Assembly (NCBI GenBank): GCA_963846105.1
Contig: CAWJUT010000003.1
Coordinates: 37,752 to 101,751, forward strand
DNA length: 64,000 nucleotides
Direction: 5' to 3'
DNA from: an uncultured delta proteobacterium
Lineage (GTDB): Bacteria; Desulfobacterota; Binatia; UTPRO1
Numbering within the stretch: position 1 is the first letter of the stretch; the number at the start of each line of letters is the position of its first letter. Shown in pieces: positions 20,078 through 51,400 of this stretch. A model generated the notes under the pieces. It had not been told where the DNA came from. It did no database searches and was given only the letters and a program-made list of their open reading frames with translations. A program made the position numbers and the translations under genes.

Positions 20078-20116
20078 CGCGCCCGCGCTGGTGAGCGCCA
20101 GGCCCAGGCTTCGGTC

Positions 20117-27056: not shown

Positions 27057-27074
27057 GGAAGTCGCCCTCTACCA

Positions 27075-27089
27075 TCAAGAAAAGTGCCA
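27075..27089 (-). promoter_or_regulatory. Possible sigma54 -24/-12 promoter (TTGA variant)
   Basis: Minus strand TGGCAC-TTTTC-TTGA just upstream of the ATG at 27056. Confidence 0.4.
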
Positions 27090-27366: not shown

Positions 27367-27630
27367 ATGATGAATTGGACGCCGTCACTGGTGTTTACGC
27401 TCACGCTCCTCGTCATCGGGGTGCAAGTTGTGAGCGCCGAATTCGCCAGAACGCGCATCCCTCATCAGGACGCGAGCGGCAGAGCGACCGTCGTCGAGAT
27501 CGACCTGAAGGTACCTGGGGCACGGGCGTTCCTGGATGCTGAGGGCGAGCCCATTCCACGACGGGGCGAGGTCATTCTGCCCCCGCGCGCGACGCCGGAG
27601 CCCTCCCCGGCCAGCCGCTCGCCGTACTGA
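27367..27630 (+). CDS. Small hypothetical secreted protein
   Basis: MMNWTPSLVFTLTLLVIGVQVVSA signal-like N-terminus. Confidence 0.45.
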   Translation: MMNWTPSLVFTLTLLVIGVQVVSAEFARTRIPHQDASGRATVVEIDLKVPGARAFLDAEGEPIPRRGEVILPPRATPEPSPASRSPY

Positions 27631-27669
27631 GTCGCTATCCCAGCCGCCGGTGGCCGGCGGCGCCGCGAA

Positions 27670-27858
27670 TCAGTACCAGCGGACCGCCATCGCTCGCCAC
27701 GCCACGATCAGGACGGCGCAGACGAGCGCGACGACAACGATCTCCGGCGGGATACCCAAGGCCTGAGCGGGCACTTTGACGAGCGCAACGGCGGCGTCAG
27801 CCGCGCTCGCAAGCCACCCGAAGAAAACGCTCAGCCATCCTGTGATGAGGTCTACCAT
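27670..27858 (-). CDS. Small membrane protein
   Basis: Hydrophobic ORF of about 62 aa with host-like codon usage. Confidence 0.5.
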   Translation of the reverse strand: MVDLITGWLSVFFGWLASAADAAVALVKVPAQALGIPPEIVVVALVCAVLIVAWRAMAVRWY

Positions 27859-27914
27859 GTGCTCCACCGTGCGCGAACGATTCGATCAGTGCCTGAGGAG
27901 ACCAGCCGCGTCAA

Positions 27915-30186: not shown

Positions 30187-30207
30187 GGTGGCTGCGCCAT
30201 TCCGATG

Positions 30208-30223
30208 AGCAACGCGTGTGCCA
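30208..30223 (-). promoter_or_regulatory. sigma54 -24/-12 promoter
   Basis: Minus strand TGGCAC-ACGCG-TTGCT, 21 bp upstream of the ATG at 30186. Confidence 0.7.
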
Positions 30224-30697
30224 GTGCCGTTGCGAGGTTTTGCCTACGCGACGAGCGTCATTCTCGGCACTCGCGCCCGTCTGACGGCACAGTGCGCCCG
30301 CGCGCGAGGTCACACGGCGACTGTCGAGTGACGAAGCGTCTGCGCAGTGGCGGCACGTCGCGAGAATCCCCGATGGTGGCCGGCGAGCCCTGCCCACCGA
30401 GCCGGCCCTCCCCTCGCATCACCATCGCTCCTGAGTGCCGTGACCTACCTCCCGATGCTCTAGTTGTAGAGTCCGGCGCTTGCTGATAGCGTGCGCTGGT
30501 CTCGTCGCCCCGATGGCACGAGCATCCCGCCTCCGTCGTCTCGCCGGCTCGTCTCGAGCCCGCGCATCGCCGCATAGGTAGGGCCGAGCGGCGGCTGCGT
30601 CCGGTATCTCCTCCGTTCTCCAACAATTACACCGGCTTGACGAAGCGCGACCGGCTCCAACCTGGGTCGGCACGCTCAGAAGGAAGACAGCATCATC

Positions 30698-31985
<1,288 letters not shown>

Positions 31986-31994
31986 GTCTCGTGA

Positions 31995-32034
31995 TCCGGT
32001 GTGCCGACGATTGAAGCATCGCCGGCACACCGGA
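31995..32034. terminator. Hairpin between convergent genes
   Basis: TCCGGTGTGCCG ... CGGCACACCGGA inverted repeat. Confidence 0.6.
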
Positions 32035-32040
32035 ACGCGT

Positions 32041-35000: not shown

Positions 35001-35629
35001 TCGAGGCCGTCGCCGTCACACCGCTGTTTGCGAGGTCGATGATCACATTCTCGAGATAGGTGGTGCCGCCAGCACCGGCTTTGATGTTTATTGTGCAAGG
35101 GCCAGGGTTCGGAAGAGCGGTGACCGCTTCTTGGATCGTCTTGAAGAAGACTGCTCGCCGGAATCGAGGCTGCAATGCTCGCGTCGACGGTAAATGGGCA
35201 GGCCCCGATGGGGGTGGCGTCGTAGAAATAAGCGATGGCGGCTAGGTCCGGCCCGGACAGTTCGCCCGTCGCCACAATCTTTATGAAGACCTCCCGATCA
35301 CCTTCATCGGGGGAAAACTCGGTGTTTGTGAAGCTGCCATCGGCTGCGGCGACCGAGGTCACGAGCCTATCTGCCCGGACTGGGCTCTGCACGGTGATTG
35401 TGACGACTTCCCCGGGCTGGAAGTTACCGGCGCTGATAGTCACGGTGTCGCCCGGACTGTAGTCCTTTCGGTCCGTCGATACGAAGGGCTCAGGCGCACT
35501 TTGAGCGAACGCTGCGTTCGCGAGCGCGAGAGTTGGCAAGAAGAGCAGGAGCGAGATGAGCGACCTCGATGCGACACATCTGGCGCGTGCGTTCATGCCA
35601 CGAAGAAGAGTCCGTTGTCCGTTATTCAT
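32041..35629 (-). CDS. Large secreted protein: Ig-like, right-handed beta-helix, Thr/Pro linker, Myxococcus-type Cys repeat, carboxypeptidase-regulatory-like C-term (frameshift near 35160)
   Basis: Signal peptide and [15 protein letters not shown] in ORF 34958-35629; Asn-ladder [16 protein letters not shown]; [20 protein letters not shown]; [16 protein letters not shown] in ORF 32041-35175. Confidence 0.8.
32990..33385 (-). repeat. 18-bp tandem repeat encoding (TETATP)n Thr/Pro linker
   Basis: More than 10 consecutive [12 protein letters not shown] units. Confidence 0.92.
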
Positions 35630-36308
35630 GCGAGTCTCCGATTTGCCGCAGTGTGTGATTCGGTGCGTTTATGTGGCTCTCGACTGTCCGTCATCGCTGC
35701 TCCGACTGCGCTTTGGGTACGGCGATCCCTGGGATGATTCGCGGAACAGCCAAACACGAGTTGCGGAATCTGTGTGGCTGACCGGTCAGATCGGCAGGTG
35801 GACAGCCGATTGACCGAATGCCCGCGTCACCGTTCGGGTTCTGACGGGTGGTCTTCGGCGGGCGGTGTGCTGGCGCCAGAAGGTAGAGGTCCCGGGGGAG
35901 GATGAAATCGGGCATCGGATACGGCCAAGGTCTGGGGAGTGTGTTCCTTCAGGCGTCAGGAAGTCAAGCGAAAACGCGTAGAGAATGTGTAAGCGGGTTT
36001 ACTCTACGCCGCCGAGCTCCGAGCGCGCCACCCCCATTCTTCGCACAGGATCGCGCCGGAAAGGCGGCAAGGTTAAGACCGGGATCACCTTCGTCGAACG
36101 CCGAGGGCGCCGACTACCTAAGGCGAAGCACAATGCAGAGCACGAAGCACCAGAGCTCCTGCTGACAGTGAGCTCTCATCGTCGTCCACCTCTTACCCTC
36201 CTCCTCGTCGACCCGGCCCGCTCGGATCAATTCGTCCAGCGCGTGCTACCCAGAAGGCTACCCAGAGCCTCGGGTGCCAGGTCGGCGATGCGTCAACTAG
36301 CCGTTCGA

Positions 36309-36354
36309 TAAGTGCCCCCGGCGCGATTCGAACGCACGACCCCAGGATTAGGAA
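36309..36354 (-). repeat. att site: 46-bp duplicate of the tRNA-Arg 3' half
   Basis: TAAGTGCCCCCGGCGCGATTCGAACGCACGACCCCAGGATTAGGAA is identical to 40121-40166. Confidence 0.93.
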
Positions 36355-36705
36355 AACGATGCCGGTCGTCACCTGAGGTGCTGTGAGGCTCTATCAGGGC
36401 GAGATTCCTCGAATCAGGGGTTCGAACCGTCACGCGAGGCAACGTGAGGTTCCGCCGAGGTGGGAAGCGGTTGGGAAGCGCGTCCTTCTGGCTGAGCGGC
36501 TTGCCCCGAAAGGCCGCCGTCGAAACAGGGCCCAGAGCACCTGGCGGCAGGGTAGCAACTCGGCAGCAGGGCTGGCTGGCGCCCTCTCCTACTCACCAGC
36601 CGGATGCTGTCCCAGGCGGGGCTCACTCGACGTTGGTGGGTTCAGTGAGCCTGCCTCGGTTTCGTGGACACCCCAACTCGCACGAAAGTGCGGTAGGAGG
36701 GTGTC

Positions 36706-37008
36706 ATGGGGACGAAGAAGCGGAAGCGGCGGAAGTTCTCGGCCGAATTCAAGGCGGAGACCGTGCGGTTGGTCCGGGACAGCGACAAGAGCGTCACCGC
36801 GATTGCGCGTGAGCTGGATCTGACGGAGACGGCACTACGACGGTGGGTCCAGCAGGCGGAGATTGATGCGGGACGTGGGCCGACGGGAGCGCTGACGACG
36901 AGCGAGCGCGAGGAGCTGGCGCAGCTGCGGCGCGAGACCAAGCGGCTGCGGATGGAGCGCGACATCCTAAAAAAAGCGACGGCCTTCTTTGCCAAGGAGA
37001 GCGAGTGA
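36706..37008 (+). CDS. IS3 transposase OrfA
   Basis: RRKFSAEFKAETVRLV HTH, ERDILKKATAFF, A7 slippery run near 36969. Confidence 0.92.
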   Translation: MGTKKRKRRKFSAEFKAETVRLVRDSDKSVTAIARELDLTETALRRWVQQAEIDAGRGPTGALTTSEREELAQLRRETKRLRMERDILKKATAFFAKESE

Positions 37009-37885
37009 GATTCGCGTTCATCGAGGCGGAGAAGGCGACGTTTCCGGTGGCGGTGAGTTGCGCCGTGCTCGGGGTGTCGCGGGCGGGCTTCTACGCGTGG
37101 CGGACGCGCCCGCCCGCGCCCCGCACCATTGCCGATCAGCGGCTCGCGCTCGAGGTGGCCGCGATCTTCATGGGAGAAGCGCCAGCGCTATGGGAGCCCA
37201 CGGATGCAGCGCGAGCTCCACGACCGTGGGCAACGCATCGGCCGGATGCGGATCGCGCGGCTGATGCGGGCGCATGGCCTGCGGGCGCGTCCGCCGCGCC
37301 GGTTTCGCACGACCACCGACTCGCAGCACACGCTGCCGGTGGCGCCGAACGTGTTGGCGCGGCGCTTCACCGTGACCGCCCCGAACACCGTGTGGGTGAG
37401 CGACCTCACGTACCTGTGGACGGGCGAGGGCTGGCTCTATCTGCTCGTGATCCTCGATCTCTTTTCTCGGCGCGTCATCGGCTGGGCCACTCGGCGATCA
37501 CATGACCCGCCAGCTTGCGCTCGACGCGCTCGCGATGGCCCTCATGCATCGGCGGCCGCCGCCGGGGCTGCTGTTTCACTCCGATCGCGGCAGCCAGTAC
37601 GCGAGCACCGAGTTTTCCAGCACCTCGCTGACGCCCACGGGCATCGTCGCCAGCATGAGCCGGCGCGGCGACTGCTGGGACAACGCCGTCGCCGAGAGCT
37701 TCTTCTCGACGTTCAAGCTCGAACTCGTGTACGAGACGGCGTGGCTCACACGGGCAGAAGCGCGCCCCGCGATCTTCGAGTACCTGGAGATGTTCTATAA
37801 CGGCCAACGACTGCATTCCTCACTCGGGTACGTCAGCCCGATCGCATTTGAACGTCAGTACGAACGGCAACAGCGGGCAGCTTAA
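37005..37885 (+). CDS. IS3 transposase OrfB (DDE; frameshifted)
   Basis: YGSPRM, WVSDLTYL, DLFSRRVIGW, FHSDRGSQY, CWDNAVAESFF, HSSLGYVSP. Confidence 0.9.
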
Positions 37886-38050
37886 CCAGAGTGTCTACGA
37901 GATCGAGGCAAGCCCACAGAGTCTGTCGATGCGACAATCCAGGTCACGGACGTGTAAGGTGAAACTCTGCGTGGGCCGATATAGTGACCTGCCCCCCGCG
38001 ATCTGGCCGATAGATTCTGCTAGTCCTTCCCGCGTGGCGGGGAGGACACG

Positions 38051-38317
38051 ATGCGGAAGAGCCGATTCAGCGAAGAGCAGATCATCCAGATCTTGAAGGC
38101 CGCCGAGGCCGGGCAGAAGGTCCAGGATCTCTGCCGCAAGCACGGCATCAGCGAGCACACGTTCTACCGATGGCGGGCCAAGTACGGCGGCATGGACGTG
38201 AGCGACGCGAAGAAGCTCCGGGCGCTCGAGGACGAGAATCGACGCCTGAAACACCTGGTCGCCGATCTCACGCTCGATAACCAGATGCTGAAGTCGGTCG
38301 TCGCAAAAAAATGGTGA
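38051..38317 (+). CDS. IS407-group transposase OrfA
   Basis: [27 protein letters not shown]; ends in AAAAAAATGGTGA -1 frameshift signal. Confidence 0.94.
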
Positions 38318-39138
38318 CGCCTGCGGCCCGCCGGCTGGCGGTAGGCGTGCTGCGTGCTGACTTTCCCGTCAGCCTAAGCCGGGCCTGTGCCGCACTTGGG
38401 GTGGCGCGGTCGAGCTGTCGATACGTGAGTCGCCGCGCGGATGAGTCGCTGCGGGCCGCCTTGCGGACGGTCGCCGCGGCCCGGCCCCGTTTCGGCTACC
38501 GGCGCCTCCACATCCTGCTGCGGCGGGACGGGTGGGCGTGCAATCACAAACGCGTGTATCGGCTCTATCGCGCCGAGCGCCTGGCCGTCCGGCGCCGGCG
38601 GCGTCGCAAACTCGCGGCTAGGTGTCGGGTGCTGCTGCCCGTGCCGACGCGGCCGCACGAGCGGTGGTCGATGGACTTCATGGGCGACACGCTCGCACGA
38701 GGCCGGACCTTTCGCACGCTCAACATCGTCGACAACGGCAGCCGGGAATGCCTGGCGATCGAAGTCGACCACGGCCTCTCCGGACAGCGCGTGGCGCGGG
38801 TGCTCGACCAGCTCGCCGCGACCCGCCCGCTGCCCAAGCAGATCGTCGTCGACAACGGCCCGGAGTTCACGAGTCGGGCGCTCGATGCCTGGGCCTATGC
38901 TCACGGCGTCGAGCTCCACTTCATCCGGCCCGGCAAGCCCGTCGACAACGCGTTCATCGAGTCGTTCAACGGCAAGTTCCGCGATGAGTGCCTAAACGGG
39001 CACTGGTTCCTAGATCTCGACGAGGCGCGTACGAAGATCGAGGCGTGGCGGACCGACTACAACGAGGTGCGACCCCACAGTGCGCTCGGCAACCGCACCC
39101 CAACCGAATACGCTACCCAGGCAGGACTAGCAGCATAA
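38311..39138 (+). CDS. IS407-group transposase OrfB (DDE)
   Basis: [41 protein letters not shown]. Confidence 0.95.
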
Positions 39139-39337
39139 AGAGTCGGCGGATTTGGGGGGCAGGTCAATAGCGCCCGCAGCACGCCGCGCTCGTCCGGCTG
39201 GATTTGGTGAGCCTGCCGAAACGCACCGAGAACGACGCAGCGGTCTGTCGCACAATGATGTCTTCGTGCCTGCTCCAAACATCCGGCTCCGAACTCACCA
39301 CGACCCCACTAGGGCGGCGGCGGCTGGTTAATTCTCC

Positions 39338-39367
39338 TTGACACGTACGGACAATGCCCCCGATAGT
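39338..39367 (+). promoter_or_regulatory. Possible sigma70 promoter
   Basis: TTGACA-N18-GATAGT upstream of the RBS GGAGG and ATG at 39416. Confidence 0.4.
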
Positions 39368-39415
39368 GCGCTCGCGTCCGACACAGTGCCGTGTCCCGCC
39401 GATGGAGGTTGCCCG

Positions 39416-40123
39416 ATGCAGAGGTACGTATTCCTCGCTGTTGCGGCTATCGCGGCCGTCGGCTTGGCTACCGGTTCGGCCCAAGCGCAGTGCGCGTTCG
39501 AGCATCCGAGGAAAGCCAAGAAGTTCCAGGCCTCGCTCGTCCAGGCCTTCACGGGGTGTGAGACCGATTATGCGAACACCGCAACGGAGGGAGGCCTGGC
39601 GAGCTGCAAGCCACCCGAGACCTGGAACGAGCAATATGGCTCGCCGCCCGACGGCTGGCTCTGGGACGAGACGAGAGGTCGTGGCACCGTGTCGTTCACG
39701 GCCGCGAAGGTGACCAAGTTCATCCAGGTCGGCACCGCGCTTCCGGGCGCGAATCCCGCGAGCCCGTTCAATCCGGTTGGTGATGTCGTCGATCTCGTCG
39801 TTCAGATGAAGCTCGGCGGCGTCATCTCGAATCTTCCGGTCCTTCTGGTGAAGCGGGAACCGGGAGGCTCGTAACCCTCGTGCGCATCACCCTCGACGAT
39901 CGGATGAACGGAGACATGACTCTCGTCGACTTTCCCGGCTCGTTCCCGTTCGATCTCACGAACGGCCAGGCGAAGCTCAAGACCTCGATGAACGCGCTAC
40001 TCAACAGCATCGACCAGCCGGGCCTCGCGCCATGCACGAGCGTCGAGATCGTCTCCGTGGCGGTGTGTCGACGAGAACTTCAACCAGTTCGGTCGGGTTG
40101 GACTCTTTCTCCCGACGCTGTAA
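39416..40123 (+). CDS. Hypothetical secreted protein (frameshifts near 39835 and 40065)
   Basis: GGAGG RBS, signal peptide MQRYVFLAVAAIAAVGLATGSAQA, continues through ORF 39880 and ends DENFNQFGRVGLFLPTL-TAA at 40121-40123. Confidence 0.7.
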
Positions 40124-40124
40124 G

Positions 40125-40198
40125 TGCCCCCGGCGCGATTCGAACGCACGACCCCAGGATTAGGAATCCTGTGCTCTATCCACCTGAGCTACGGGGGC
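40125..40198 (-). tRNA. tRNA-Arg (anticodon CCT)
   Basis: GCCCCCG acceptor stem, TAGCTCAGGTGGATAGAGC D arm, CAGGA-TTCCTAA-TCCTG anticodon arm, GTTCGAATC T loop; CCA not encoded. Confidence 0.96.
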
Positions 40199-40559
40199 GC
40201 AGTTGTGAGATCAGCGACTTAGCGCAGTCTGCGAGGTATCGTCAAAACGTGTGGATCGGGGAGCCGTCCGTGACGAGTTTCCCGAACGGCCGTTCCTACC
40301 GCACGTTCGTCTGATGTCGGGCGTCTGCGAAGCCGAAGCAAGCTCGCGGTGAAGGCCCGGCGATCTCATTCGCGCCAGCTTCGTCTGCTACCGTCCGTGC
40401 CAGACGGACCCTAGCCTGTGTGGCGACACCCCTAAAGCCGCCGCTCTGCCCCTCGCTCTCCAAGCCGGCGCGCGGCCTGGAACACAGCGCTGCGGGTTGC
40501 CCCGCGTCTCGGGAACCGCTAGCAAACCGCCGCGCGATCGAGACGCCAAGGAGGTCCCC

Positions 40560-41468
40560 ATGCCGGAGATCATTCTGCACCAGTACGCGATGTCGCCCTT
40601 CTCCGAAAAGGTCCGCAAGATCTTCGCGGTGAAACGGCTGGCGTGGCGTGGTGTCGAGCAACCGATGTGGAACCCCAAGCCCAAGCTCACGCCGCTCACG
40701 GGCGGCTACCGGCGTATTCCGGTCATGCAGATCGGTGCGGACATCTACTGTGACACGGCGTGCATCGTACGCGAGCTGGAGGCGCGGTACCCCGAGCCCT
40801 CGATCTACGCCGGCAACCGGGGCGCGGCTGAAACGATCGCGTGGTGGGCCGACCGCCAGCTCTTCACGGCCGCAGCCGGTCTCGTGCTGGCAACGGTCGG
40901 ACAGACTCTTCCGCCGGAGTTCAAAGCCGATCGCGAAAAGATGGTGCCTGGGCTTCGGATCGACGCGCTCGGAGAGCAGGCTCCGCACGCCAAGAACCAG
41001 TTCCGCGCGTTCTGCCAGGCACTCGAGCATCAGCTCGGCGGCCGTTCATACGTGCTCGGTGAAGCCTTCAGCCTCGCCGACGCGTCGTGCTTCCAGGCGC
41101 TCTGGTTCGCGCGCATGGACGCCTCGGCCGCAGCGATCATGGGAACGTTTCCCGCGCTCAGCGCCTGGTTCGCACGGGTCGACAGCCTGGGTCACGGCGA
41201 CACCCGACCGCTCGACCCCGACGAGGCGCTGGCGATCGCGGCGAAGGGCGAATCGGCAACCGCGCGTTGCGCCGATCCCGGCGACCCGAATGGGGCCAGC
41301 CCCGGCGATCGAGTCACCGTCACACCGGATGACTACGCCTTGGACCCGGTCGCAGGCGAGATCGTCGCCCTCACCTCGACCGACGTCGCCATCCGGCGGC
41401 GCGATCCGGCAGTGGGCGACGTCGTCGTCCATTTCCCGCGTGCCGGCTTCCGGCTCGCACCCGCCTGA
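40560..41468 (+). CDS. Glutathione S-transferase family protein
   Basis: SPFSEKVR, LTGGYRRIPVMQIGADIYCDT, SLADA, VHFPRAGF. Confidence 0.93.
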   Translation: MPEIILHQYAMSPFSEKVRKIFAVKRLAWRGVEQPMWNPKPKLTPLTGGYRRIPVMQIGADIYCDTACIVRELEARYPEPSIYAGNRGAAETIAWWADRQLFTAAAGLVLATVGQTLPPEFKADREKMVPGLRIDALGEQAPHAKNQFRAFCQALEHQLGGRSYVLGEAFSLADASCFQALWFARMDASAAAIMGTFPALSAWFARVDSLGHGDTRPLDPDEALAIAAKGESATARCADPGDPNGASPGDRVTVTPDDYALDPVAGEIVALTSTDVAIRRRDPAVGDVVVHFPRAGFRLAPA

Positions 41469-41504
41469 GGGACGTCGTAGCACCCGGCCGCGCACGACAC
41501 GCGA

Positions 41505-42209
41505 GTGTCCTTGGGAACTGACGAGCCGGCGGTCTTCCGTCCGGCGGTGCTGATTCCGAGCTATCAGTGCGCCGACACCATCGCCGCCGTCGTCGGCGAC
41601 GCGCGGCCGCACACCGAGCTGGTTCTGGTGGTCGACGATGGCTCGAGCGACGCCACTGCCGCGCGCGCGCGTGAGGCGGGCGCAGAGGTCGTGCGGCACG
41701 AACGCAATCGCGGCAAAGGCGCGGCGCTTCTCACCGGCATGCGCGATCTCATCGGGCGTGGTTTCACGCATGCGATCTCGATGGATGGCGACGGCCAGCA
41801 TCTCGGCCAGGAGATTCCAACTCTGCTCGCCGTGGCACGCGCCGAGCCAGCCGCGATCGTGATCGGAAGCCGCCGCATCGGCGGCCAGGAGGTCGCCGCG
41901 GCCAATCTCTTCGGCAACCGGGTCGCCAATCTCGCGGTGCGCCTCGCGGCGCGGACGGCGGTCGGTGACACACAATCGGGCTTCCGCGTCTATCCGCTGC
42001 CGGCCGTCCTCGCGTTGCCCGCGAGCGGCGATCACTTCGAGTACGAGACCACGGTGATCATTCGTGCCGCACGCGCCGGTATGCCGATTCGATCGGTACC
42101 GGTCGGCGTCTACTATCCACCGATCGCCGAGCGTCGCAGTCACTACCGCAAAGTCCGGGACACACTCCGCATCATTCGCGCAGTTGCCCCCCTCTTGTTG
42201 CGACGCTGA
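41505..42209 (+). CDS. Glycosyltransferase family 2 (DPM-synthase-like)
   Basis: VVDDGSSDAT, NRGKGAAL, MDGDGQH, DTQSGFRVY. Confidence 0.92.
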   Translation: MSLGTDEPAVFRPAVLIPSYQCADTIAAVVGDARPHTELVLVVDDGSSDATAARAREAGAEVVRHERNRGKGAALLTGMRDLIGRGFTHAISMDGDGQHLGQEIPTLLAVARAEPAAIVIGSRRIGGQEVAAANLFGNRVANLAVRLAARTAVGDTQSGFRVYPLPAVLALPASGDHFEYETTVIIRAARAGMPIRSVPVGVYYPPIAERRSHYRKVRDTLRIIRAVAPLLLRR

Positions 42210-42288
42210 GGCGGCGCGACCGCTACTTTTGCGGCGCGGAAATGCCCTGCCCTCCGCGAAAACTCGGCGTTCTCGCCTGCGGGCGCCG

Positions 42289-42304
42289 TGGCATTCGTCT
42301 TGCT
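42289..42304 (+). promoter_or_regulatory. sigma54 -24/-12 promoter
   Basis: TGGCAT-TCGTC-TTGCT upstream of the GGAGG RBS and GTG at 42332. Confidence 0.65.
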
Positions 42305-42331
42305 GTCTCTCGCCGCGGAGGAACCAGACTA

Positions 42332-42586
42332 GTGGAAAGACTCGCACCCGTGATTCGTGATCTCCGCAACCGGCTGGGCCTCACCCAAGAGGAGTTCGCA
42401 CACGCTCTGGGCATCACGGTCAGCACTGTGAACCGTTGGGAGAAGGGTCATTCCGTGCCGAGCAAGCTTGCGCGCGCGTCCCTCGCCCGCTTCGCTGGGC
42501 GGCGTGGCGTGGCCGTGGAGAGCTTGCTGGAAGACATCGACCCTGGCGTCGTGCCGCCTCCCCGATCGACGCCTTCGACGAACTGA
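42332..42586 (+). CDS. XRE/Cro-family HTH protein
   Basis: IRDLRNRLGLTQEEFAHALGITVSTVNRWEKG. Confidence 0.88.
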   Translation: MERLAPVIRDLRNRLGLTQEEFAHALGITVSTVNRWEKGHSVPSKLARASLARFAGRRGVAVESLLEDIDPGVVPPPRSTPSTN

Positions 42587-42718
42587 ACCGCTTGGCCCGC
42601 CGCGCACCGTTCTCCCGGGTGCCCGAGCGGCGTATCATCCTCTTAGCTGCGGCCCCCTCCCCCGTTCCCGCGTACGCGTCGCCCGTCACGTTGCGAGCGC
42701 GGCTTCTTTCGAGATCCG

Positions 42719-43291
42719 TCAGGCGCTCGCGCCTCCGGCGGCAACTTGTGCCCGCAGACCCCCGACACGGCGCTCGACCAACTCGTCGGCACGGGCCAGG
42801 AGCGCCTCGTCATGGGTGTACTTCTCGATCATGAAGCTCAGGTCGCCGAGGTCGTGAATGAGCATCTGCACCGCCTGATCTCGCCAGCGCCGGTCCTTCA
42901 CGACTTGCAGGAGATCGACGACCACGTCTTCGAGCTCGGAGCTTTCGATGTCGACCGCCATGGTGAGCGCGCGATCGATGTCGACGCCGCGGCGGGCTTC
43001 CTTGACATAGGCGGCGAGCAGCGCGCGCAAGCGCGCCACCGTGGTGTCGTCGAACCACACCTTGCGATCGCCGACCAGTGCCGGGTCGTTCTCGATCAGG
43101 CTCTCGACGAGCGCCAGCGCGCCGCAGTGCCCGGCCTCGTGGCGCGCCATCGCGAACCAGAAGCTGCGTAGCTGGTCGATGCTTTTGAACGTCCGGACGA
43201 ACACGGTGTAGAGCTGCATCGTCCTGCGTTCGAGATCGATCGCGGTGTCGAGCACTTCGCGGATGGTGGCGCGTCGGCTCCGGACCCGCAT
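42719..43291 (-). CDS. Ferritin/rubrerythrin-like protein
   Basis: AIDLERRTMQLY..FWFAMARHEAGHC..AVDIESSE helical pattern. Confidence 0.6.
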   Translation of the reverse strand: MRVRSRRATIREVLDTAIDLERRTMQLYTVFVRTFKSIDQLRSFWFAMARHEAGHCGALALVESLIENDPALVGDRKVWFDDTTVARLRALLAAYVKEARRGVDIDRALTMAVDIESSELEDVVVDLLQVVKDRRWRDQAVQMLIHDLGDLSFMIEKYTHDEALLARADELVERRVGGLRAQVAAGGASA

Positions 43292-43393
43292 GGCGCGGCC
43301 ATAACAAGAAGGCATCGGGTTGGAAAGCGCCCGCGTCGACAGGCGCGGTCGGGCGCGTTGGAAAGTACGCGTCGCGGCGCTAGAATCCGGGTG

Positions 43394-43894
43394 ATGCGTT
43401 GGCTTCTGGTTTGCGCTCTGTTGATCGCGAGCGCGTGCATGCAGGATCCGGTACGCGACCCCGCGGTGACCCAGGATGTGCTCGCCTACCTGGCGAAGAT
43501 CCGCAAGTGGGAGGCCGTCGAGGTCGAGGCGCTGCGCGCGATCCGCGACGTCAAGCGCTCGCAGTACGTGGACGACGACTACGTCATCAGTACGCTCGGC
43601 GGCGTCATGGACGACGTCGAGCTGCATCTCGAGGAGGTGACCCGCTACCAGCCACGCACCGCACCGGTGATCGACGTGCATACCCGCTACCGTACCGCCT
43701 GGCGCGACCTGCACGATGCGTTCGCGGAGATCATCGCCGCCATGGAACGCAAGGACTACGTCGAGCTCTCCAAGGGTACCGAGGCGATGGCCCGGTCGCG
43801 CGACGAGCTCATCACCGTCGCGGCGGCTCTGAATCTCCTGCTCAAGGAGACCGGCCTGAAGGACGAGGACGCCGGCGCGCCGGCGGCGTCCTGA
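43394..43894 (+). CDS. Hypothetical lipoprotein
   Basis: Signal with ASAC lipobox; helical; host-like codon usage. Confidence 0.7.
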   Translation: MRWLLVCALLIASACMQDPVRDPAVTQDVLAYLAKIRKWEAVEVEALRAIRDVKRSQYVDDDYVISTLGGVMDDVELHLEEVTRYQPRTAPVIDVHTRYRTAWRDLHDAFAEIIAAMERKDYVELSKGTEAMARSRDELITVAAALNLLLKETGLKDEDAGAPAAS

Positions 43895-43907
43895 GCAGGC
43901 GACGCGC

Positions 43908-44721
43908 GTGGGCGGCGACGCGCTCGAGGAGATCGCCGAGCTGATCGCCGCGGTCGGGCGATGCTATCAGAGCGCCCGGCGGTATCGCGCGATTGCGACG
44001 CTGGCCGAGGGCCGTACCCTCGAGCGGGCACTCGAGATCGGCGCGACGGTGCGCCAGGGCGCGCGCGGCGGCGGCCTCGATGTCGCGGCAGCCGCGGCGG
44101 CGGCCGATACGCTGCGCGCGCTACTGGCCGAGTGCGAAGCGGCGATGGCTGGAGTGCGGGCGAGCGATCTCTATCGTCGTGCCGCCGGCGCCTGGGAAGA
44201 TGGCCGCGGCGGCGAGGTCGCGGCGCTGGCCCCCGAGATCTTCGCCGAGGTCGAGCCCTATCCCGACTGTCCGACGCTCTACTATCCGGTCCGGTTGCGA
44301 GAAGACGGCGCGGCGGCGAGCATTTCGTTGCGCCCGAGGCCTGCGCTGCCGCCATCGCGGAGCTGGCTGCGCGAACGGAATCGCGGCGTCGCCGTCGCCG
44401 ACCGATCTCGGCGCCGACGAGAGGATCAGGGCGGTCTTTCTCAGCGACGACCCCGAGGGCCTGGAGAGCCCGGTGGCGCTGACGATCGAGCCAGCGAGCT
44501 TCGGCGTGCCGGTCTGCCGTGTCGGTGTCGGCGGCGACGTCGCCCTCTACGTCGCGAGGCTACGGGTACCGTTCGCGGTTCGTTGCGCGCCAGCGTTACA
44601 CGACGAATGGTGGGCCGTGCGTCCGGACGCGTACGAACGCTACGTCGCAGAGTTACGCGCCGAGCTCACGGCGCGCGCTATCCCCCTCGCCGACTCGACG
44701 GAACGGCGAGGGGGCTCGTAG
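43908..44721 (+). CDS. Hypothetical protein (frameshifted)
   Basis: Plausible coding segments in ORF 43908 (N-half) and ORF 43993 (C-half, ending at 44721). Confidence 0.5.
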
Positions 44722-45223
44722 TCGGGCTCGACGACGACCTCCTCGGGCTCGGTGGCTGGAACCGGCTCACCGTACGTCTCGAGCGGCGGGTGACAAGACA
44801 CTGCCCCCGTGATGCGATAGCAGGTTGTGCGGTCGAGATGCGCCGGCCGGACGTAGTAGTCGCCCTCGGTGGTGTTCACCCACCATCCCTTGGCGGTCCG
44901 CAGGTCGCCTCCGGACACCCAGCCGCTGAAGCCGCCGAGTGCGGCACCGGTCGCGCCGAACACCATGCGCAGCGGCGTGTAGACGATATTGATCGCCGTC
45001 GACGGCGACCGAGAGACCGAACTCCGCGCCCGGGTGCGGGTGGTCTTCACGGATCACACGCGCACATGGATTGATGCAGTGGCGGGGCGCACCCACCTCC
45101 ACACCATGATGCACAGGGCACGTCGGGCCGAGCGTGAGGACATGGCGCGTCGGGTGTTCCCGCGAACGCCGATCCCGTCACTACCGCCATTCCCACCATC
45201 ACACCGATCAGGACGCTTCGCAT
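44640..45223 (-). CDS. Hypothetical exported/membrane protein (frameshifted)
   Basis: GGAGGT RBS and signal-like MRSVLIGVMVGMAVV from 45223; C-half INIVYTPLRMVFGATGAALGG..EGDYYVRPAHL. Confidence 0.55.
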
Positions 45224-45382
45224 CGCGCGTCACCTCCGTTTGGCAGCGTTCTCGCCATGTTGCCACCCTTGGTGGGTGTCGCGCAATCGGTCTTTCGTAG
45301 GCCGCCGGTGCCACGAAGGCCGGCGGTTGACGTTCCCTCCCCCGCTACGCCCTCTCGACTCCCAGTGCGTCGCCGACCCCCC

Positions 45383-46699
45383 TCACAGCTTCTCCTCCAG
45401 CGCACTCGCCAACCGCCGGACTTCGGGGTCGCACGTGCGTCGGGTCTCGATGACCCGGACCGCGTGCAACACCGTTGTATGGTCACGCCCGTAGCGCTCG
45501 CCGATCGAGGCGAACGACAGGCCCATGTGCTTTCGCATGAGATACATCGTGAGTTGCCGCGCGAACACCACCCGAGACTCCCGCCGCGGCGACAGGATCT
45601 GGCGGGGCTCGATACCGAGATACGTACCGACCAGGGTCTCTACGCGCTCCGCCGAGAGGCGTCGATGGGCGTCGGGATACATCGGGCCGATCGTCTCCTC
45701 GGCGAGCGCGCGGTCGATCGTGCGCCCGTTCAGCGACGCGACGGCGCGCAACCGTGTGAGCGCGCCCTCGAGCTCGCGGACGCTGACCGCATGAATGCGC
45801 TCGGAGAGATAGTCGAGCACCGGATCGGGCAGCGTCATCCCGGCGAGCTCGGCTTTACGGGCCAGGATACGCCGGCGCGTCGGCCGGTCGGGTGGCGTCA
45901 CCTCGGCGATCATCCCGCCCTCGAATCGACTGCGCAGGCTCGCTTCGAGATCCGCGATGCCACGCGGCGCCTTGTCGGAGGTCACCACGATCTGCTTCCC
46001 GGCGGCGCACAACAGATCGAAAGTGTGCAGAAACTCCTCCTGCGTGCGTTCCTTGCCGGCGATGAACTGGACGTCGTCGACCAGCAGGGTGTCGACCCGC
46101 CGGTAGCGCTGGTGGAAGGTCTCCATTTGCTGTCGGCGCACGGCGCTTACCATCTCGTTCACGAACGCCTCGGCGCTGACGGCGAGGACGCGCAGCCGGC
46201 GGAAGTTCGTCTCGAGCGCGGCGGCGATGGCGCTCATGAGATGGGTCTTGCCGAGCCCGACTCCGCCGTGAATGAAGAACGGATTGTAGTGTCGACCAGG
46301 CGCGCCGGCGACGGTCAACGCGGCGGCGTGCGCCAGCTCGTTACACGAGCCGGCGACGAACGTCTCGAAGGTGAGGGCGTGCCCGGGATGGCGCAGCGGA
46401 TCGACGGCGGGCGCCGGGCGTGGTGATGGCGGAGGTGGTGCGCACTCTCCGGCGAGGCCGGTGGGGCGGATGGACAGGACGACTGGCACCGGTCGACCGG
46501 CGACGGTCTCGACGGTGGATCGTATTCGCTCGAGGAAGTGATGCTGCACCCACGTGCGGTGCAGCGCCGTCGGCGCCTCGACCGTGAGCGTGTCGCTCGG
46601 GTCGGCGGACGTCTGCAAGCACGAGATCCATGCCGCAAAGTCCTGGCTCGGCATCGAAAGCTGCAACTCCACCAGCGTCCGGTCCCAAAGATCGTTCAT
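45383..46699 (-). CDS. dnaA: Chromosomal replication initiator DnaA (possibly a second paralog)
   Basis: TFETFVAGSCN, YNPFFIHGGVGLGKTHL, LLVDDVQF, QEEF, LRSRF, VRELEGAL, domain IV IGERYGRDHTTVLHA. Confidence 0.93.
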   Translation of the reverse strand: MNDLWDRTLVELQLSMPSQDFAAWISCLQTSADPSDTLTVEAPTALHRTWVQHHFLERIRSTVETVAGRPVPVVLSIRPTGLAGECAPPPPSPRPAPAVDPLRHPGHALTFETFVAGSCNELAHAAALTVAGAPGRHYNPFFIHGGVGLGKTHLMSAIAAALETNFRRLRVLAVSAEAFVNEMVSAVRRQQMETFHQRYRRVDTLLVDDVQFIAGKERTQEEFLHTFDLLCAAGKQIVVTSDKAPRGIADLEASLRSRFEGGMIAEVTPPDRPTRRRILARKAELAGMTLPDPVLDYLSERIHAVSVRELEGALTRLRAVASLNGRTIDRALAEETIGPMYPDAHRRLSAERVETLVGTYLGIEPRQILSPRRESRVVFARQLTMYLMRKHMGLSFASIGERYGRDHTTVLHAVRVIETRRTCDPEVRRLASALEEKL

Positions 46700-46795
46700 C
46701 GAACTGATCCCTCCCTCGCCTGATCGCCCGCGCGCTTCCCCCTTCCCTTCCGCACCACACCGCCCGCACGGTCCACGCCACTTTGTGATCGCCCG

Positions 46796-46817
46796 TTGTC
46801 CACAGCCTGGTGATAAC
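46796..46817. promoter_or_regulatory. Inverted pair of DnaA-box-like sites upstream of dnaA
   Basis: TTGTCCACA-GCC-TGGTGATAA; first box has 1 mismatch to TTATCCACA, second has 2 mismatches to TGTGGATAA. Confidence 0.6.
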
Positions 46818-47247
46818 TGAAGGAGCGTCGCGGTCACGCATAGTTGGCGTTGGCGTCCAACTAGATGTGCACAGGTCGCGCGCGCTCCGGTGCCCGCCCC
46901 TGCATCCTCTGCCGGGCACGGCGAGCAGCCACTTTGAGAGCATCGATACTATTTTGTTACGAGAAACGTTCTTGAGGGTTTCAAAGCGACGAACTACTAC
47001 CCTCCGTCGAGAAGGATAGCAAGAGAAAAATAATGGGAGGGACACTATTTTGAGATCACTCTATACACATCGCGACCATCGACCATCGGCGGCGTCTCGA
47101 AGGCATCGCCGCGATCGCTCCGTTGGCCGTGCTGGGGAGCGTTTGACATCGTCTTGGCAGTTCCGTTACGGAGTGCGCGAACTTGCTCGGGGTCGGCGTC
47201 GGGATAGCGAAGCCCGATGACGCGTCCTATCGAACAGGAGGTGGCTG

Positions 47248-47922
47248 ATGAAAGTCGGACTGCGTTTCGCGGTGACATCTGTTCTGTTGGTCACTTTCGC
47301 TGTCGGATGTACTTGCATGCAGAAGCCGTGGGGGAGAGGCGCGTTGTGGGGTGCGGGAGTAGGTGCCATCGGCGGCGGCATCGCCACCGGAGCCGCGGCC
47401 AACAACACCGGCGCCTTCGACATCGGCAATGACAACGAGGACAAAGCGCTGGCGGCTGCGACCGGTATCGTCGGTGGCGCGCTGCTCGGCGCGATCCTCG
47501 GTCACTGTCTGTGGGATCGTGAAGCGGTCGTCCAAGCAGCCGCTCCGCCGCCCCCGGCCCCCGCTCCTGCACCTCCGGTGCAGAAGAAGATCGTGCTGCG
47601 CGGTGTGAACTTCGATTTCGACAAGGCGACGATCCGTCCGGACGCGTCGTCCATCCTGCGCGAGGCAGCAACCATCCTCAAGGAGAACGCCAGCGTGCAG
47701 GTCTTCGTCGAGGGACATACCGACGCGGTCGGCACCGACGCCTACAACCTCGGGTTGTCGATGCGGCGAGCGTCGGCGGTAAAGGCGTTCCTCGTGACCG
47801 AAGGCATCGCGGACAGCCGGCTCACGACGAAAGGCATGGGTGAGTCGCAGCCAGTTGCCTCGAACGACACGGACGATGGCAGAGCCCAGAATCGTCGTGT
47901 CGAGCTGAAAGTCACGGAGTAG
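47248..47922 (+). CDS. OmpA-family peptidoglycan-binding (lipo)protein
   Basis: Gly-zipper, Pro linker, VNFDFDKA, VEGHTD, YNLGLSMRRA, NRRVE. Confidence 0.93.
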   Translation: MKVGLRFAVTSVLLVTFAVGCTCMQKPWGRGALWGAGVGAIGGGIATGAAANNTGAFDIGNDNEDKALAAATGIVGGALLGAILGHCLWDREAVVQAAAPPPPAPAPAPPVQKKIVLRGVNFDFDKATIRPDASSILREAATILKENASVQVFVEGHTDAVGTDAYNLGLSMRRASAVKAFLVTEGIADSRLTTKGMGESQPVASNDTDDGRAQNRRVELKVTE

Positions 47923-47935
47923 CGGAAGACATCGC

Positions 47936-47971
47936 AGCGAGCGGGCGGGTACGCGATCCCTTCCGCTCGCT
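47936..47971 (+). terminator. Hairpin downstream of the ompA-like gene
   Basis: AGCGAGCGG ... CCGCTCGCT inverted repeat. Confidence 0.45.
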
Positions 47972-48290
47972 GCTCCGTCTCCCGGCTCTAGCGTCCAAGC
48001 GGACCCTTTTGGGGTCGAGGTCGTCGCCCGCGAAGGCTTGCGGCGCGACGCCGGATCCGTCTGGTTTCATCGTGCGGGTCGATCCGACCCACGCGCCGCT
48101 CGAGCGGGCAAGCACGCAATTGGATCGCCGCGCCCGAAGCGCGGCAATTTAGCCGCCGCCATAGGGGTTTTCACTGCGTTTACGAAGGCGCGGCGGTCGA
48201 GCACCTGCGCGAGAGAAGTGCCCCCGTCGCCGTGGTGTCCGTACACTCTCGTGCAAACTCGCATAACCGTGCAGGTCTGACGCAGGGGGG

Positions 48291-48338
48291 TAGGCCAAAC
48301 GGGCCGAATTTATTGGCCTAACCGGCACGCACCTTGCT
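48291..48338 (+). promoter_or_regulatory. sigma54-type promoter with an adjacent inverted repeat
   Basis: CGGCACG-CACC-TTGCT at 48323-48338, preceded by TAGGCCAA-N14-TTGGCCTA at 48291-48320. Confidence 0.6.
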
Positions 48339-48487
48339 GGTCTATCCGGAACCGCACGCAAAGTCTGGAAAGTGCCGTGATCGAACGAGACATCTGCGAC
48401 CATAGTCAGTGGGCAAAAGCCGAAAAGGACACAGTCGTCCCAGACGGTGACCCACAGCGACGCACACGGACCGGTCCGCGACCAACG

Positions 48488-51400
48488 ATGGTAGCACGCT
48501 ACCTGGCGACTGCCATCGTTCTGGTTTCCCTGCTCGTCGTCCCGGCGGCTCCAAGCAGTGCCGGAAGCTACTCGTTCGACGAGGACTTCTCTCTTCCCGC
48601 GGGCATCACGCCGCAGGAGATCAACTCCTCGGACTGCGACGGCGACAACGAACCGGATCTCGTGGTCGCCAATTTCGATTCCGACAATGTGACCATCTTC
48701 CGCAATGTTGGCGCAGGCCAGTTCCATTTCTGGCAGACCATCGCCACCAGCGATCAACCCTCGGGCGTCGACTGTGCGGACATGAACGGTGACGGCCGCA
48801 TCGACGTTCTCGTCTCCAATTTCACCGCCGGGACCCTCACCCTCTACGAGGCCCAGCTCGACGGCACGTTCACCGCCGCAGGGCCGTTCCCCGTGGGGGA
48901 TCAGCCGCGCTCGGTGACGCCTCAGGACTTCGACGGCGACGGCAACCTGGACGTGCTCGTCGTCAACGTCCAGACACGCGACCTCACGCTGCTTTTCGGA
49001 AACGGTATGGGCGGCTTCCCCTTCGCCTCCACCATCAGGCTTCCGACCAACCGCGACCGCCCAGTGTCGGCCGCGGTCGCTGATTTCAATGACGATACCC
49101 GTCCGGACATCGCGATCGTAGGCCAGGGTGATCCTCCGGTGTTCCTCCTCCTCGGCGAAGATCTCGGCTTTCGCTTCACCGAAGGAACCCTCCCCTCACC
49201 TCCCGAGCCGAGGAGCACGGCCTCGGACGACCTGAACGAGGACGGCAAACCTGATCTCGTCGTACTCTCCACGGACTCGACGGTCACGATCTATGTCGGC
49301 GCCAATGACGGGACGTTCGCGGACTTCAGCACGTTCCTCGTGAAGCCCAATGCCCGCGGCATCGCGCTTTCCGACTTCAACGGTGACGGGCTCGTCGACA
49401 TCGCGATCTCGTACGCGATCACGAACGCTGTCGACGTGCTGCTGGCGACGGCCCCCGGGGTCTTTCCTGCGGTCGACGCCCCTGCGTCGCCGATCGTGCT
49501 CAATGCCTCGGGAGCGGTGCTGCCCCGCATCCAGATCACCGGAACGGATCTCGTCGGCCTCGACAAGACGACGAAATCGCTCGCGGTCGTCTCGATGCCG
49601 GATCAAATGGGTACGCTCGCCGTAACGCCTGCCGCCTCCATGACCCAAGAGCCGCAGACGATGCTGCTCGCCGACATGAACCGTGACGGCCTCCCCGACG
49701 CCATCGTCGCTAGTACGGGCCGGCGCTCGACGGTCCTCAGCATCCTCCCCGGCAACGCCAGTGGCGGATACGGCGCACCCCCTGGCGGCTCATGGACGTG
49801 CGGAAACGGCATCATCGAGGGCATAGAGCTGTGCGATGACGCCAACGTCAAGAACGGCGACGGCTGCAACGCAACCTGTGGTCCCGACCTCGCCAAAGGC
49901 GCGCTCACGCTGGTCGCCGCGGACGTGAACCTGGATGGCTCCACCGACCTCGTGGCGGTCGACCGCCGGGCAAGCCTGTACGTGATGCTCGGCAACGGCA
50001 ACGCCGCCTTCAGCTCGATCCGCCTGCTTGGCAAGGTCCGCAAGGGTACCACTGCGGCCGTGGCGGACTTCACGAACGACGACATCGTCGACATCGCCTA
50101 CGTGCCGAAAGGAGGCCGCGACGGCTCGCTCATCGTGCTCGCCAACGACGGCACCGGCGGGCTCACGGCGAATCACCTCGCGCTCGGCACTTTCTTCGGC
50201 GGGCCACTGCTCGCCGGCGACTTCGATCGCAACGGCGCCAACGATCTCGTGACCGTGAAGCGCGGCTCGCGAGGCGGCCTGGTTGCCCTCTACAATGATG
50301 GTCTCGGCAGCTTCCGGCTGACCCCGCCCCGGAGCGTCCCCGGCAAAGGCGCCGCGCTGGCCGCCGCAGATCTCAATGAGGACGGTTGGCTCGACGTGCT
50401 GGCCACGTTCGGGACCCGGAGTCGCGCCCTCTACCTCTTCGCGGGTACGTCTTCAGGCGAGTTCGAGAATCCGCGGCAACTGCTCGCCACCGAGCGCTTC
50501 GTCGATACGGCGATCGTCGACCTGAACCTCGATCTCCATCAAGATCTCGTCGTCTGCGACGGCAAGACATTGGCGACCTGCAAAGCGTGGTTCGGCGACG
50601 GCACGGCCCAGTTCTATGCCCTGCCGCCCTTCCTGGCAGCGCCGGACGCCGCAGGCGCGTACATCGGCCGCGATCCGCGTGGATTCGTCGCCGCCGACAT
50701 GGACGACGACGGCGTCATCGATTTCATCGGCGCAAGCCGCGGCGATGACCGCGTGGTGGTCCTCTTCCGTCAGGATGGTTCGACGGACGTCACTCGGCTT
50801 GAGTTGATCCCCGGCTCCAAGCCTGGCCCGCTCGCGGTCGGGGACCTGAACGGCGACGGCATGCCGGACATCGTCGTCGCCAACGAAGGCTCCAACGATC
50901 TCAGCATCTTCCTCAACCTCGGGAACCGGCAGTTCCAAACGCTGGCTCGAATTCGCCTGGCCGAGGCCGGCGGTGCGCCGACCCTGACCCCGACGCCGAC
51001 AGCGACGAGCACGCCGGATCCCGATGCGACACCGACCGGGGGTCCGACCCCGAGTCCGACCGCAACCGGTGACCCGCACCAGCACGCGCAGCCTGTGGCG
51101 ATCGCCCTCGGCGACCTGAACGGCGACAACAAGTTGGACGTTGCCGTTGCGCTCAAGGGACTGGCGCGTGTCACCGTGCTCTTGAATTTCGGTCCCGGCG
51201 GCCTCGCCATCGCCAACAATTTCACGACCGGGGTCCGGCCCCAGGATCTGGTTCTTGGTGACTTCAACAACGACACTGTGCTAGACATCGTCACCGCGAA
51301 TCTGGGTGCCGATACCCTGACGGTCATTCTCTCCGACGGCGTCGGAGGATACACGCAAACGGACATACCGAGTGGTGGCGAGCAGCCGACGGCGCTCGCC

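Follow-up and report, generated by a model that had tools for sequence, protein, structure and literature searches.

Why would a bacterium carry a complete gene for the replication initiator DnaA next to the terminus of its chromosome, at the pole opposite the origin? The question is raised by a 64,000-nucleotide stretch of DNA (the window), which corresponds to positions 37752-101751 of contig C3 (CAWJUT010000003.1) in the metagenome-assembled genome (MAG) G000, an assembly of 27 contigs and 4.96 Mb that was scored 61.6% complete. The genome is that of a soil bacterium of Binatia, a class from which no member has been cultured so far. How replication is held to one round per cell cycle is largely open outside a few model species, and the known regulators of initiation, Hda, SeqA, datA/DARS, YabA, and CtrA, are lineage-specific. 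An earlier sequence-only reading of the window had pointed to a full-length dnaA gene near a dif site and had proposed a second initiator whose dosage follows the end of replication. We found that this gene, referred to here as dnaA2, is a paralog of an origin-linked dnaA (dnaA1) and lies in the terminus region, and we regard its identity and position as close to certain.

The two dnaA genes and the chromosome poles

The following elements of the window define the locus.

45383..46699, minus strand: dnaA2 coding sequence, 438 amino acids from the ATG at 46699, a complete four-domain DnaA paralog (DnaA2)
24470..24495, plus strand: dif site GTCCGATAAGCAGGATTATGTCAACT, two inverted arms around a 6-bp center, single copy in the genome
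2047..20658, plus strand: eight GGGNAGGG motifs, the FtsK-orienting polar sequence (KOPS), left of dif and pointing at it
26218..49195, minus strand: ten GGGNAGGG motifs (KOPS) right of dif, pointing back at it, three of which bracket dnaA2

The open frame around dnaA2 spans 45383-46837 on the minus strand. We set the start at the ATG at 46699, because it is preceded by a GGGAGGG ribosome-binding site and because all 16 family orthologs in an alignment of the upstream regions begin at the identical position. The encoded protein scored above the curated Pfam cut-offs for DnaA_N (40.7 bits), Bac_DnaA (208.3 bits), and Bac_DnaA_C (74.2 bits), and its best solved relative is the full-length Bacillus subtilis DnaA (8BTG; E 5.7e-95, 322 bits, residues 3-436), in agreement with the intact four-domain protein described earlier. 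DnaA2 and its orthologs keep the motifs GGVGLGKTHL, VDDVQF, TSDK, LRSRF, VRELEG, and RDHTTV, which we take to be Walker A, Walker B, sensor I, the box VII arginine finger, sensor II, and the domain IV helix-turn-helix signature that reads DnaA boxes, respectively. Thus, by its domain architecture, its ATP-binding and oligomerization motifs, and its domain IV signature, DnaA2 belongs to the DnaA family. The dN/dS ratios in close pairs (0.08-0.14 for DnaA2 and 0.07-0.09 for DnaA1) indicate that both paralogs are under purifying selection; the mean dN of DnaA2 is 1.26-fold that of DnaA1 (55 pairs), which makes DnaA1 the slower evolving of the two.

The other copy, dnaA1, lies on contig C17 (498.6-499.8 kb) and is 37% identical to the window copy. 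It is directly followed by dnaN and gyrB, the sole matches to these genes in the genome, so that the window indeed holds neither of them and dnaA2 has no dnaN or gyrB downstream. Among the 64 window open reading frames (ORFs) scanned there was also no recF or rpmH, in a scan not aimed at either gene. The cumulative GC-skew minimum of C17, at ~500 kb, coincides with dnaA1, and the suspicion that the window gene is a second DnaA was thereby borne out. An alignment of the dnaA1-dnaN spacer of G000 (C17:499850-500127) with those of 13 relatives (loci L100-L112) revealed conserved CTGTGGAT, TTCCACA, and TCCAC boxes, a short spacer, CTACTACTACTAG, and an AT-rich tract; on the opposite strand, CTACTACTACTAG reads as four 5'-TAG repeats. 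PMC8287927 describes an unwinding module made of a DnaA box, a spacer, and DnaA-trios with the consensus 3'-GAT-5', and gives as the basal criterion a DnaA box followed by at least three DnaA-trios within ~16 bp. The dnaA1-dnaN spacer has this arrangement. We assign oriC to this spacer, because boxes, DnaA-trios, and an AT-rich tract occur there together at the GC-skew minimum. Conserved in 14 family genomes, the spacer offers a usable oriC landmark for Binatia.

No DnaA boxes were seen upstream of dnaA1. Box counting failed as a way to find oriC, while the spacer alignment succeeded: the genome contains no perfect TTATCCACA and eight copies of TTGTCCACA, and no cluster of at least three DnaA boxes within 600 bp was found at either dnaA1 or dnaA2. 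In G000, dnaA1 carries two frame breaks, and breaks also affect dnaN and several genes of the window; the split frames comprise DUF2950, DNA polymerase III alpha-like, and P450 genes (window 1226-1986, 7219-10151, and 23355-24386) together with dnaA1 and dnaN (C17:498628-501300). Broken dnaA genes were found in three assemblies (G000, G006, and G012), all of them with few contigs and 62-75% complete. Because so many genes are broken in a genome of few contigs at 62% completeness, we read the frame breaks as probable indel errors of long-read assembly rather than as pseudogenes.

At the other pole, the dif assignment agrees with the layout of a 28-bp site with inverted arms and a 6-bp center present once per chromosome. 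A degenerate form of the site had one match in the genome and none in the reversed control. At up to three mismatches, exactly one site was found in 13 of the 19 family genomes, with no control matches, and 37 of 61 class genomes had a single occurrence of the core ATAA-N6-TTATGTNAA, with three control matches; outside the family, the center is often GATATA or TGTATA. The genome encodes an FtsK gamma domain, and GGGCAGGG is its most strand-skewed 8-mer (127 vs 29). Further skewed 8-mers found de novo beyond GGGCAGGG and GGGAAGGG were mostly codon-bias words with a meaningless switch point and were set aside, and KOPS polarity was scored with GGGNAGGG alone. On C3, the GGGNAGGG counts were 12 plus and 0 minus left of dif and 0 plus and 20 minus right of it, and in G018, they were 32 plus and 4 minus as compared to 2 plus and 28 minus, also switching at dif. 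The motifs to the right lie at window positions 26218, 27601, 29895, 30388, 30406, 42245, 42655, 45335, 46740, and 49188, and the last of these, the only KOPS previously noticed beyond dnaA2, has the polarity of all the others on that side. We identify 24470-24495 as the genuine dif, because the site is single-copy and GGGNAGGG polarity flips exactly there, which upholds the earlier placement of dif at 24.5 kb.

The distance from dif to the dnaA2 stop codon is 20.9 kb. The cumulative skew of C3 has its maximum at ~80 kb (window ~42 kb), and in G018, the skew changes from plus to minus near 2.58 Mb and from minus to plus near dnaA1 at 5.95 Mb, with dnaA1 and dif 3.25 Mb apart on a single contig of 7.0 Mb. 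Around the origin, GGGNAGGG is unbiased over 590 kb of C17 (24 plus/24 minus and 2 plus/2 minus), and it is perfectly polar around dif; the FtsK-orienting signal is thus concentrated in the terminus region. Together, oriC, dif, and the KOPS motif are practical landmarks for Binatia genomes.

Conservation of DnaA2 and of its position in Binatia

A DnaA match was present in all 40 relatives examined, and 31 of 61 sampled class genomes had two or more matches at E <= 1e-30, counts that are not strict copy numbers. Genomes of the family to which G000 belongs (f1; the other families sampled bear further f numbers) typically encode two DnaAs, an ortholog of the window copy (62-69% identical; 16 genomes) and a copy that is ~40% identical to it. 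Among 63 fetched loci, every family copy of the latter type stands in the order dnaA-dnaN-gyrB, while every family ortholog of dnaA2 is flanked by a divergent OmpA gene and a small downstream gene.

Two quick IQ-TREE trees, with 67 and 70 rows, were built without the frame-broken dnaA1 of G000 and G012 and the fragmented G006 copies; the second tree also omitted L146 and the duplicate L133. The dnaN-linked copies all fell in one clade (SH-aLRT 98-99). The window copy grouped with copies from f2, f5, f10, f12, f15, and f17 in clade A (24 rows, SH-aLRT 92), which holds the dif-linked copies, and copies from f3, f6, f11, and f13 formed clade B (6 rows, SH-aLRT 87). The phylogeny called for earlier therefore places dnaN-linked and dif-linked copies in separate clades. 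All Binatia copies stood together against a small outgroup sample of only four sequences (SH-aLRT 97). We read DnaA2 as an old, vertically inherited, and functional Binatia paralog of the replication initiator; that it is ancient, complete, and under selection is firm.

Three genomes of f10 (G035, G051, and G059; 92-100% complete) yielded only a DnaA that is not linked to dnaN, and neither PF00712 nor a DnaN protein of the same family detected dnaN in them. Their origin region is probably unassembled, and therefore a single copy in a MAG cannot be read as a loss.

The second copy and dif lay on one contig in 11 genomes, for which the distance between them was obtained from combined coordinates.

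f1: G000 20.9 kb, G011 19.4 kb, G013 23.1 kb, G002 23.2 kb
f1, remaining genomes: G018 37.7 kb, G006 42.8 kb, G012 77.8 kb
f5, f15, and f17: G030 7.9 kb, G054 10.2 kb, and G070 58.4 kb, respectively
f10: G027, clade A copy, 266.8 kb

Four families thus contribute 10 genomes in which 8-78 kb separate dnaA2 from dif. The gene in each of these sits on the TTATGT-arm side, presumably that of XerD, and its transcription runs toward dif. The proposed linkage of the two elements is therefore conserved in relatives, and a chimeric contig is ruled out. The genes that immediately flank dif are conserved as well.

18215..22963, plus strand: AAA(MoxR-like)-VWA-BFN-TPR_21 genes beside dif, a block that stays with the site from family to family
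25151..26461, minus strand: gene for an HD/HD_assoc phosphohydrolase, on the side of dif where dnaA2 lies, dif-adjacent also in f5 and f15

A possible role for DnaA2 and its alternatives

To describe the control region of dnaA2, we aligned the 430 nt 5' of the gene from G000 and 15 family genomes. The region contains the following elements.

46796..46816, no strand assigned: two head-to-head 9-mers resembling DnaA boxes, TTATCACCA / TTGTCCACA, that form a palindrome ~100 nt 5' of the ATG, a likely operator
46866..46873, no strand assigned: palindrome TGTGCACA in the dnaA2 leader (C3:84617), conserved in the alignment
46920..47070, no strand assigned: AT-rich tract in the divergent dnaA2/OmpA intergenic region, GC 0.37-0.47 vs ~0.67 around it
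46941..46959, minus strand: AT-rich element TAACAAAATAGTATCGATG, conserved in the alignment, with no second match in the genome at up to four mismatches
46994..47022, minus strand: promoter-like pair TTGCTA, 17 nt, TAGTAG, with a T-run ahead, inferred from the alignment

The conserved blocks appear in the order T-run with CTTGC-N17/18-GAGAGTA, AACAAAAT.GTATCGATG, TGTGCACA, GCGCAACT, box palindrome, GTGACGTTGG, and GAGGGAGG, the ribosome-binding site. Both the inverted DnaA-box pair, assigned earlier to 46796-46817, and the AT-rich tract were thus recovered. On the minus strand, positions 46816-46796 read TTATCACCA-GGC-TGTGGACAA, and the palindrome is kept in the form TATCC(C/A)CAG(G)CTGTGGA(C/T)A by all 16 family genomes of the alignment and occurs once in the 4.96-Mb genome. 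A search of the genome for a possible regulon found no further copy of the box palindrome or of the AT-rich element, and no Rfam family matched between 44 and 48 kb. No RNA sequencing run was listed for the sequence, and the best-matching DNA run shared only 0.20 of the sampled words. The promoter-like pair is conserved as CTTGC..N17-18..GAGAGTA, from which a dnaA2 leader of ~300 nt is predicted, and the CTTGC -35-like motif is also found upstream of dnaA1. A consensus sigma-70 scan missed the pair at 46994..47022, and the promoter assignment is therefore tentative.

The position of these boxes invites comparison with known DnaA autoregulation. In E. coli and B. subtilis, DnaA regulates its own expression through boxes in the dnaA promoter region. 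As at dnaA2, the boxes of such systems lie between a promoter-like element and the start codon; at dnaA2, however, they make up one near-perfect palindrome, found nowhere else in the genome, and the gene that follows is a paralog. A role of P. aeruginosa DnaA as a transcription factor is treated in PMC13438810.

The two DnaAs also differ in domain I. The first 100 residues of 62 copies were scanned with DnaA_N (Pfam cut-off, 24.6 bits).

DnaA2 of f1 and f2: 44-59 bits in 17 of 17
dnaN-linked DnaA1 of f1 (n = 13): 22-36 bits, with 4 of 13 under the cut-off
DnaA1 of G000: 35 bits (vs 44 for its DnaA2), domain I in both copies
DnaA1 of f2 (377 amino acids) and f6 (384 amino acids): domain absent, stop codon just upstream
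DnaA1 of f11 and f13: no DnaA_N match at E <= 1
Second copies of f2, f6, f11, and f13: 54-71 bits
DnaA1 of the mostly single-copy f4, f7, and f9: 66-78 bits
DnaA1 of f8, mostly with one copy: 43-49 bits
DnaA1 of f3, f5, f12, f15, and f17: 52-67 bits
Second copies of f3, f5, f12, f15, and f17: 23-45 bits

No domain-I-like sequence was found in the f2 and f6 DnaA1 loci. The truncated dnaN-linked proteins are those of L114 (G019:C2) and L120 (G023:C3); naturally truncated origin-linked DnaAs are unusual. In lineages with two copies, either one or the other paralog tends to hold the better domain I, as would be expected if both shared one job, which we regard as a hint and not as proof.

We favor, at about an even chance, the reading that DnaA2 is a second DnaA that regulates itself, acts in trans, and works together with DnaA1 at oriC, and that its gene is the last to be copied in every round. 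DnaA2 would act in trans on DnaA boxes and would repress its own gene through the box palindrome, an autoregulation that we consider reasonably probable. At the dnaA1-adjacent oriC, it would cooperate with DnaA1, probably in mixed oligomers, to which it would contribute its well-kept domain I, a part that is degraded in, or missing from, the DnaA1 of several families; to this cooperation we give slightly less than an even chance. With dnaA2 among the last genes to be duplicated, the ratio of DnaA2 to origins would be restored only at the end of a replication round, and its recovery could couple re-initiation, or a late cell-cycle program, to termination. The dnaA2 locus itself would not be an origin, the part of the proposal of which we are most confident. 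A stronger version, which we think unlikely, is an initiator split into two genes between the chromosome poles, in which DnaA1 would form the origin-binding and unwinding core and DnaA2 would supply a required partner function, such as helicase recruitment by domain I or completion of the oligomer, so that completed replication would license the next round.

If true, this would amount to a "termination-licensed" control of initiation, undescribed in bacteria, and a complete, selected initiator paralog kept beside dif throughout a class would be either a new link between termination and initiation or, at the least, a new type of regulator with a cell-cycle-dependent position. That domain I is weakened reciprocally in the two copies also leads to a biochemical hypothesis, mixed DnaA1/DnaA2 complexes at a box-trio origin, that is testable with recombinant proteins. 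No description of a terminus-linked DnaA paralog was found in the full-text literature searched, a search that had most subscription journals outside it.

Several observations weigh against the cooperation of the two proteins or against a selected position. In f3, f5, f12, f15, and f17, the two copies show the opposite domain I pattern, and therefore complementation by domain I is not general; in G000 itself, both copies have the domain. DnaA2 appears dispensable in parts of the class, because f4, f7, f8, and f9 mostly have one DnaA copy. In DnaA2 of f1 and f2, the arginine equivalent to E. coli R281, in box VII, is replaced by S/G, a difference from the dnaN-linked copies, whose RFEWGL has become RFEGG in DnaA2; the loss of this arginine could weaken oligomer formation. 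The function of DnaA2 is inferred. As to position, the G027 copy, although transcribed toward dif, lies on the other arm at 267 kb, and clade B copies are far from dif (at least 1.3 Mb in G031 and at least ~0.1 Mb in G023 and G036). Among genomes with both dif and a second copy, the two are on different contigs in 6 of 13 family genomes and 12 of 16 outside the family; these contigs are mostly short and uninformative. Finally, the order AAA-VWA-BFN-TPR_21, dif, HD is conserved across f1, f5, and f15, and therefore the position of DnaA2 could be inherited synteny rather than a selected trait. That the position is functionally selected is a tentative proposition, and we put it somewhat below an even chance.

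Inherited synteny is in fact the main rival, and the dormant origin and the exchange of roles discussed below are less likely. According to it, DnaA2 is functional, for instance as a transcription factor that binds DnaA boxes or as an initiator with redundant function, and its closeness to dif merely reflects descent in a slowly rearranging block. The AAA, VWA, BFN, TPR_21, and HD genes are equally persistent beside dif in f1, f5, and f15, and the distant G027 and clade B copies and the failure to detect DnaA2 in the majority of genomes from four families fit this explanation as well. However, the linkage persists down to ~37% protein identity between DnaA2 copies, none of the 10 genomes departs from the common side and orientation, and the intervening genes change: most genes between HD and dnaA2 in the window had no match in the intervals of f5 and f15, the interval varies between 8 and 78 kb, and an insertion sequence (IS)-bearing low-GC island has been inserted here. 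We consider neutral position doubtful, although it is the most serious competitor of the trans-acting DnaA2. By comparison, an artifact, either a chimeric contig or a mis-binned foreign dnaA, is next to impossible. It could be suspected from a MAG that is 61.6% complete and has many frame-broken genes, yet the dif-dnaA2 arrangement recurs in nine other assemblies, both dnaA copies lie on the single 7.0-Mb contig of G018, and the gene order around dnaA2 is conserved. The relatives exclude it.

The backup origin considered by the sequence-only reading would be a dormant or conditional oriC2 at the terminus, fired by DnaA2 from its own boxes and the AT-rich tract. A full-length DnaA2 with a good domain I, and conserved boxes next to a conserved AT-rich tract in the intergenic region beside a dnaA, are indeed the classical setting of an origin. 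Against this, the locus has just two boxes, arranged as a palindrome, with no conserved run of NAN/TAG trios beside them, as compared to four trios in the dnaA1-dnaN spacer; the nearby skew of C3 goes from plus to minus, as at a terminus, and that of G018 stays negative across dnaA2; KOPS polarity stays the same through dnaA2 in both G000 (window 45335, 46740, and 49188) and G018; and the AT-rich tract holds a promoter-like CTTGC-N17-TAGTAG, as does the region upstream of dnaA1. The box-trio module of oriC and an origin-type switch of skew or KOPS are thus both missing at dnaA2, and with oriC beside dnaA1, a second origin is very improbable, and the other option raised earlier, a dnaA uncoupled from oriC, is disfavored. 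Only a little less improbable is an exchange of roles, in which DnaA2 would be the main initiator and would work in trans on the dnaA1 oriC, with DnaA1 as an auxiliary or regulatory, Hda-like subunit. The loss or degradation of DnaA1 domain I in f2, f6, f11, and f13, its weakness in f1, and its retention in the second copy speak for such an exchange, as do the two frame breaks of dnaA1 in G000, where dnaA2 is intact. The breaks, however, look like assembly indels, DnaA1 is the more slowly evolving protein (mean dN ratio, 1.26), and families with a single copy retain DnaA1 with a strong domain I.

Compared with known systems, DnaA2 shares the four-domain architecture and motifs of canonical DnaA (B. 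subtilis 8BTG; Aquifex 1L8Q/2HCB). It differs in being a second copy whose gene is away from dnaN and oriC, beside dif at the opposite chromosome pole, and in the replaced R281-equivalent and the change from RFEWGL to RFEGG. Hda/HdaB-type regulators are likewise a second AAA+ protein of the DnaA family, and Hda structures are weak matches to DnaA2 (E ~1e-6); an Hda-type identity was rejected, since Hda is without domains I and IV and DnaA2 has both. Chlamydiae also have two full-length DnaAs per genome (dnaA1/dnaA2), as in Binatia, which are a separate, uncultured class. We know of no report of a paralog conserved next to dif. Control of initiation by the position of a locus is known from datA/DARS2 in E. 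coli, crtS in V. cholerae, and the phosphorelay genes near the origin and the terminus in B. subtilis. These share with our proposal the logic that the replication time of a locus sets a cell-cycle signal. They are, however, DNA sites or unrelated genes, while the Binatia element is a complete initiator paralog, with a putative effect.

Neighboring genes and other features of the window

Three genes close to dnaA2 recur in relatives.

47248..47922, plus strand: OmpA-family gene, divergent from dnaA2, a conserved neighbor
44640..45050, minus strand: small gene 3' of dnaA2, 136 amino acids, no family assigned, conserved
42719..43291, minus strand: gene for a rubrerythrin-like small protein, the most persistent dnaA2 neighbor across f1, f2, f5, and f10

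The OmpA-family neighbor is 66-79% identical beside dnaA2 in 16 loci (15 family genomes and G019 of f2, the only genome of the same order that was examined), and the wider conserved gene order is FG-GAP, OmpA, dnaA2, small gene, rubrerythrin-like, GT2, GST. None of the neighbors of dnaA2 (OmpA-family, FG-GAP, GT2, GST, amidase, NuoF/G-like, and rubrerythrin-like) is replication-related. The rubrerythrin-like protein (190 amino acids) has conserved MARHEAGH and ELED motifs and no Pfam match at E <= 0.001; in its Atlas clusters, PF02915 is found on only 15-30% of members. In f5, 56 bp separate its gene from the upstream dnaA2, and both have the same orientation.

Next to dif, a P450 gene fragment (23355-24386) is inserted directly before the site in this genome. 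The VWA domain of the dif block is labeled VWA(CoxE), and BFN denotes the bifunctional-nuclease domain. Between dif and dnaA2, positions 32044-39135 form a low-GC island (GC 0.58-0.62) with an open frame of 1066 codons that includes a beta-helix domain. Two sets of IS3-type transposase genes come after this frame (at 36697-37882 and 38024-39135), and the island looks like a recent insertion. On the other side of dif, a TANGO2-family match at 18353-19039 on the minus strand lies opposite the long plus-strand ORF 18215-20074, in which the AAA domain begins only at ~19227. The first ~300 codons of this ORF are probably noncoding, with a TANGO2-like gene there instead.

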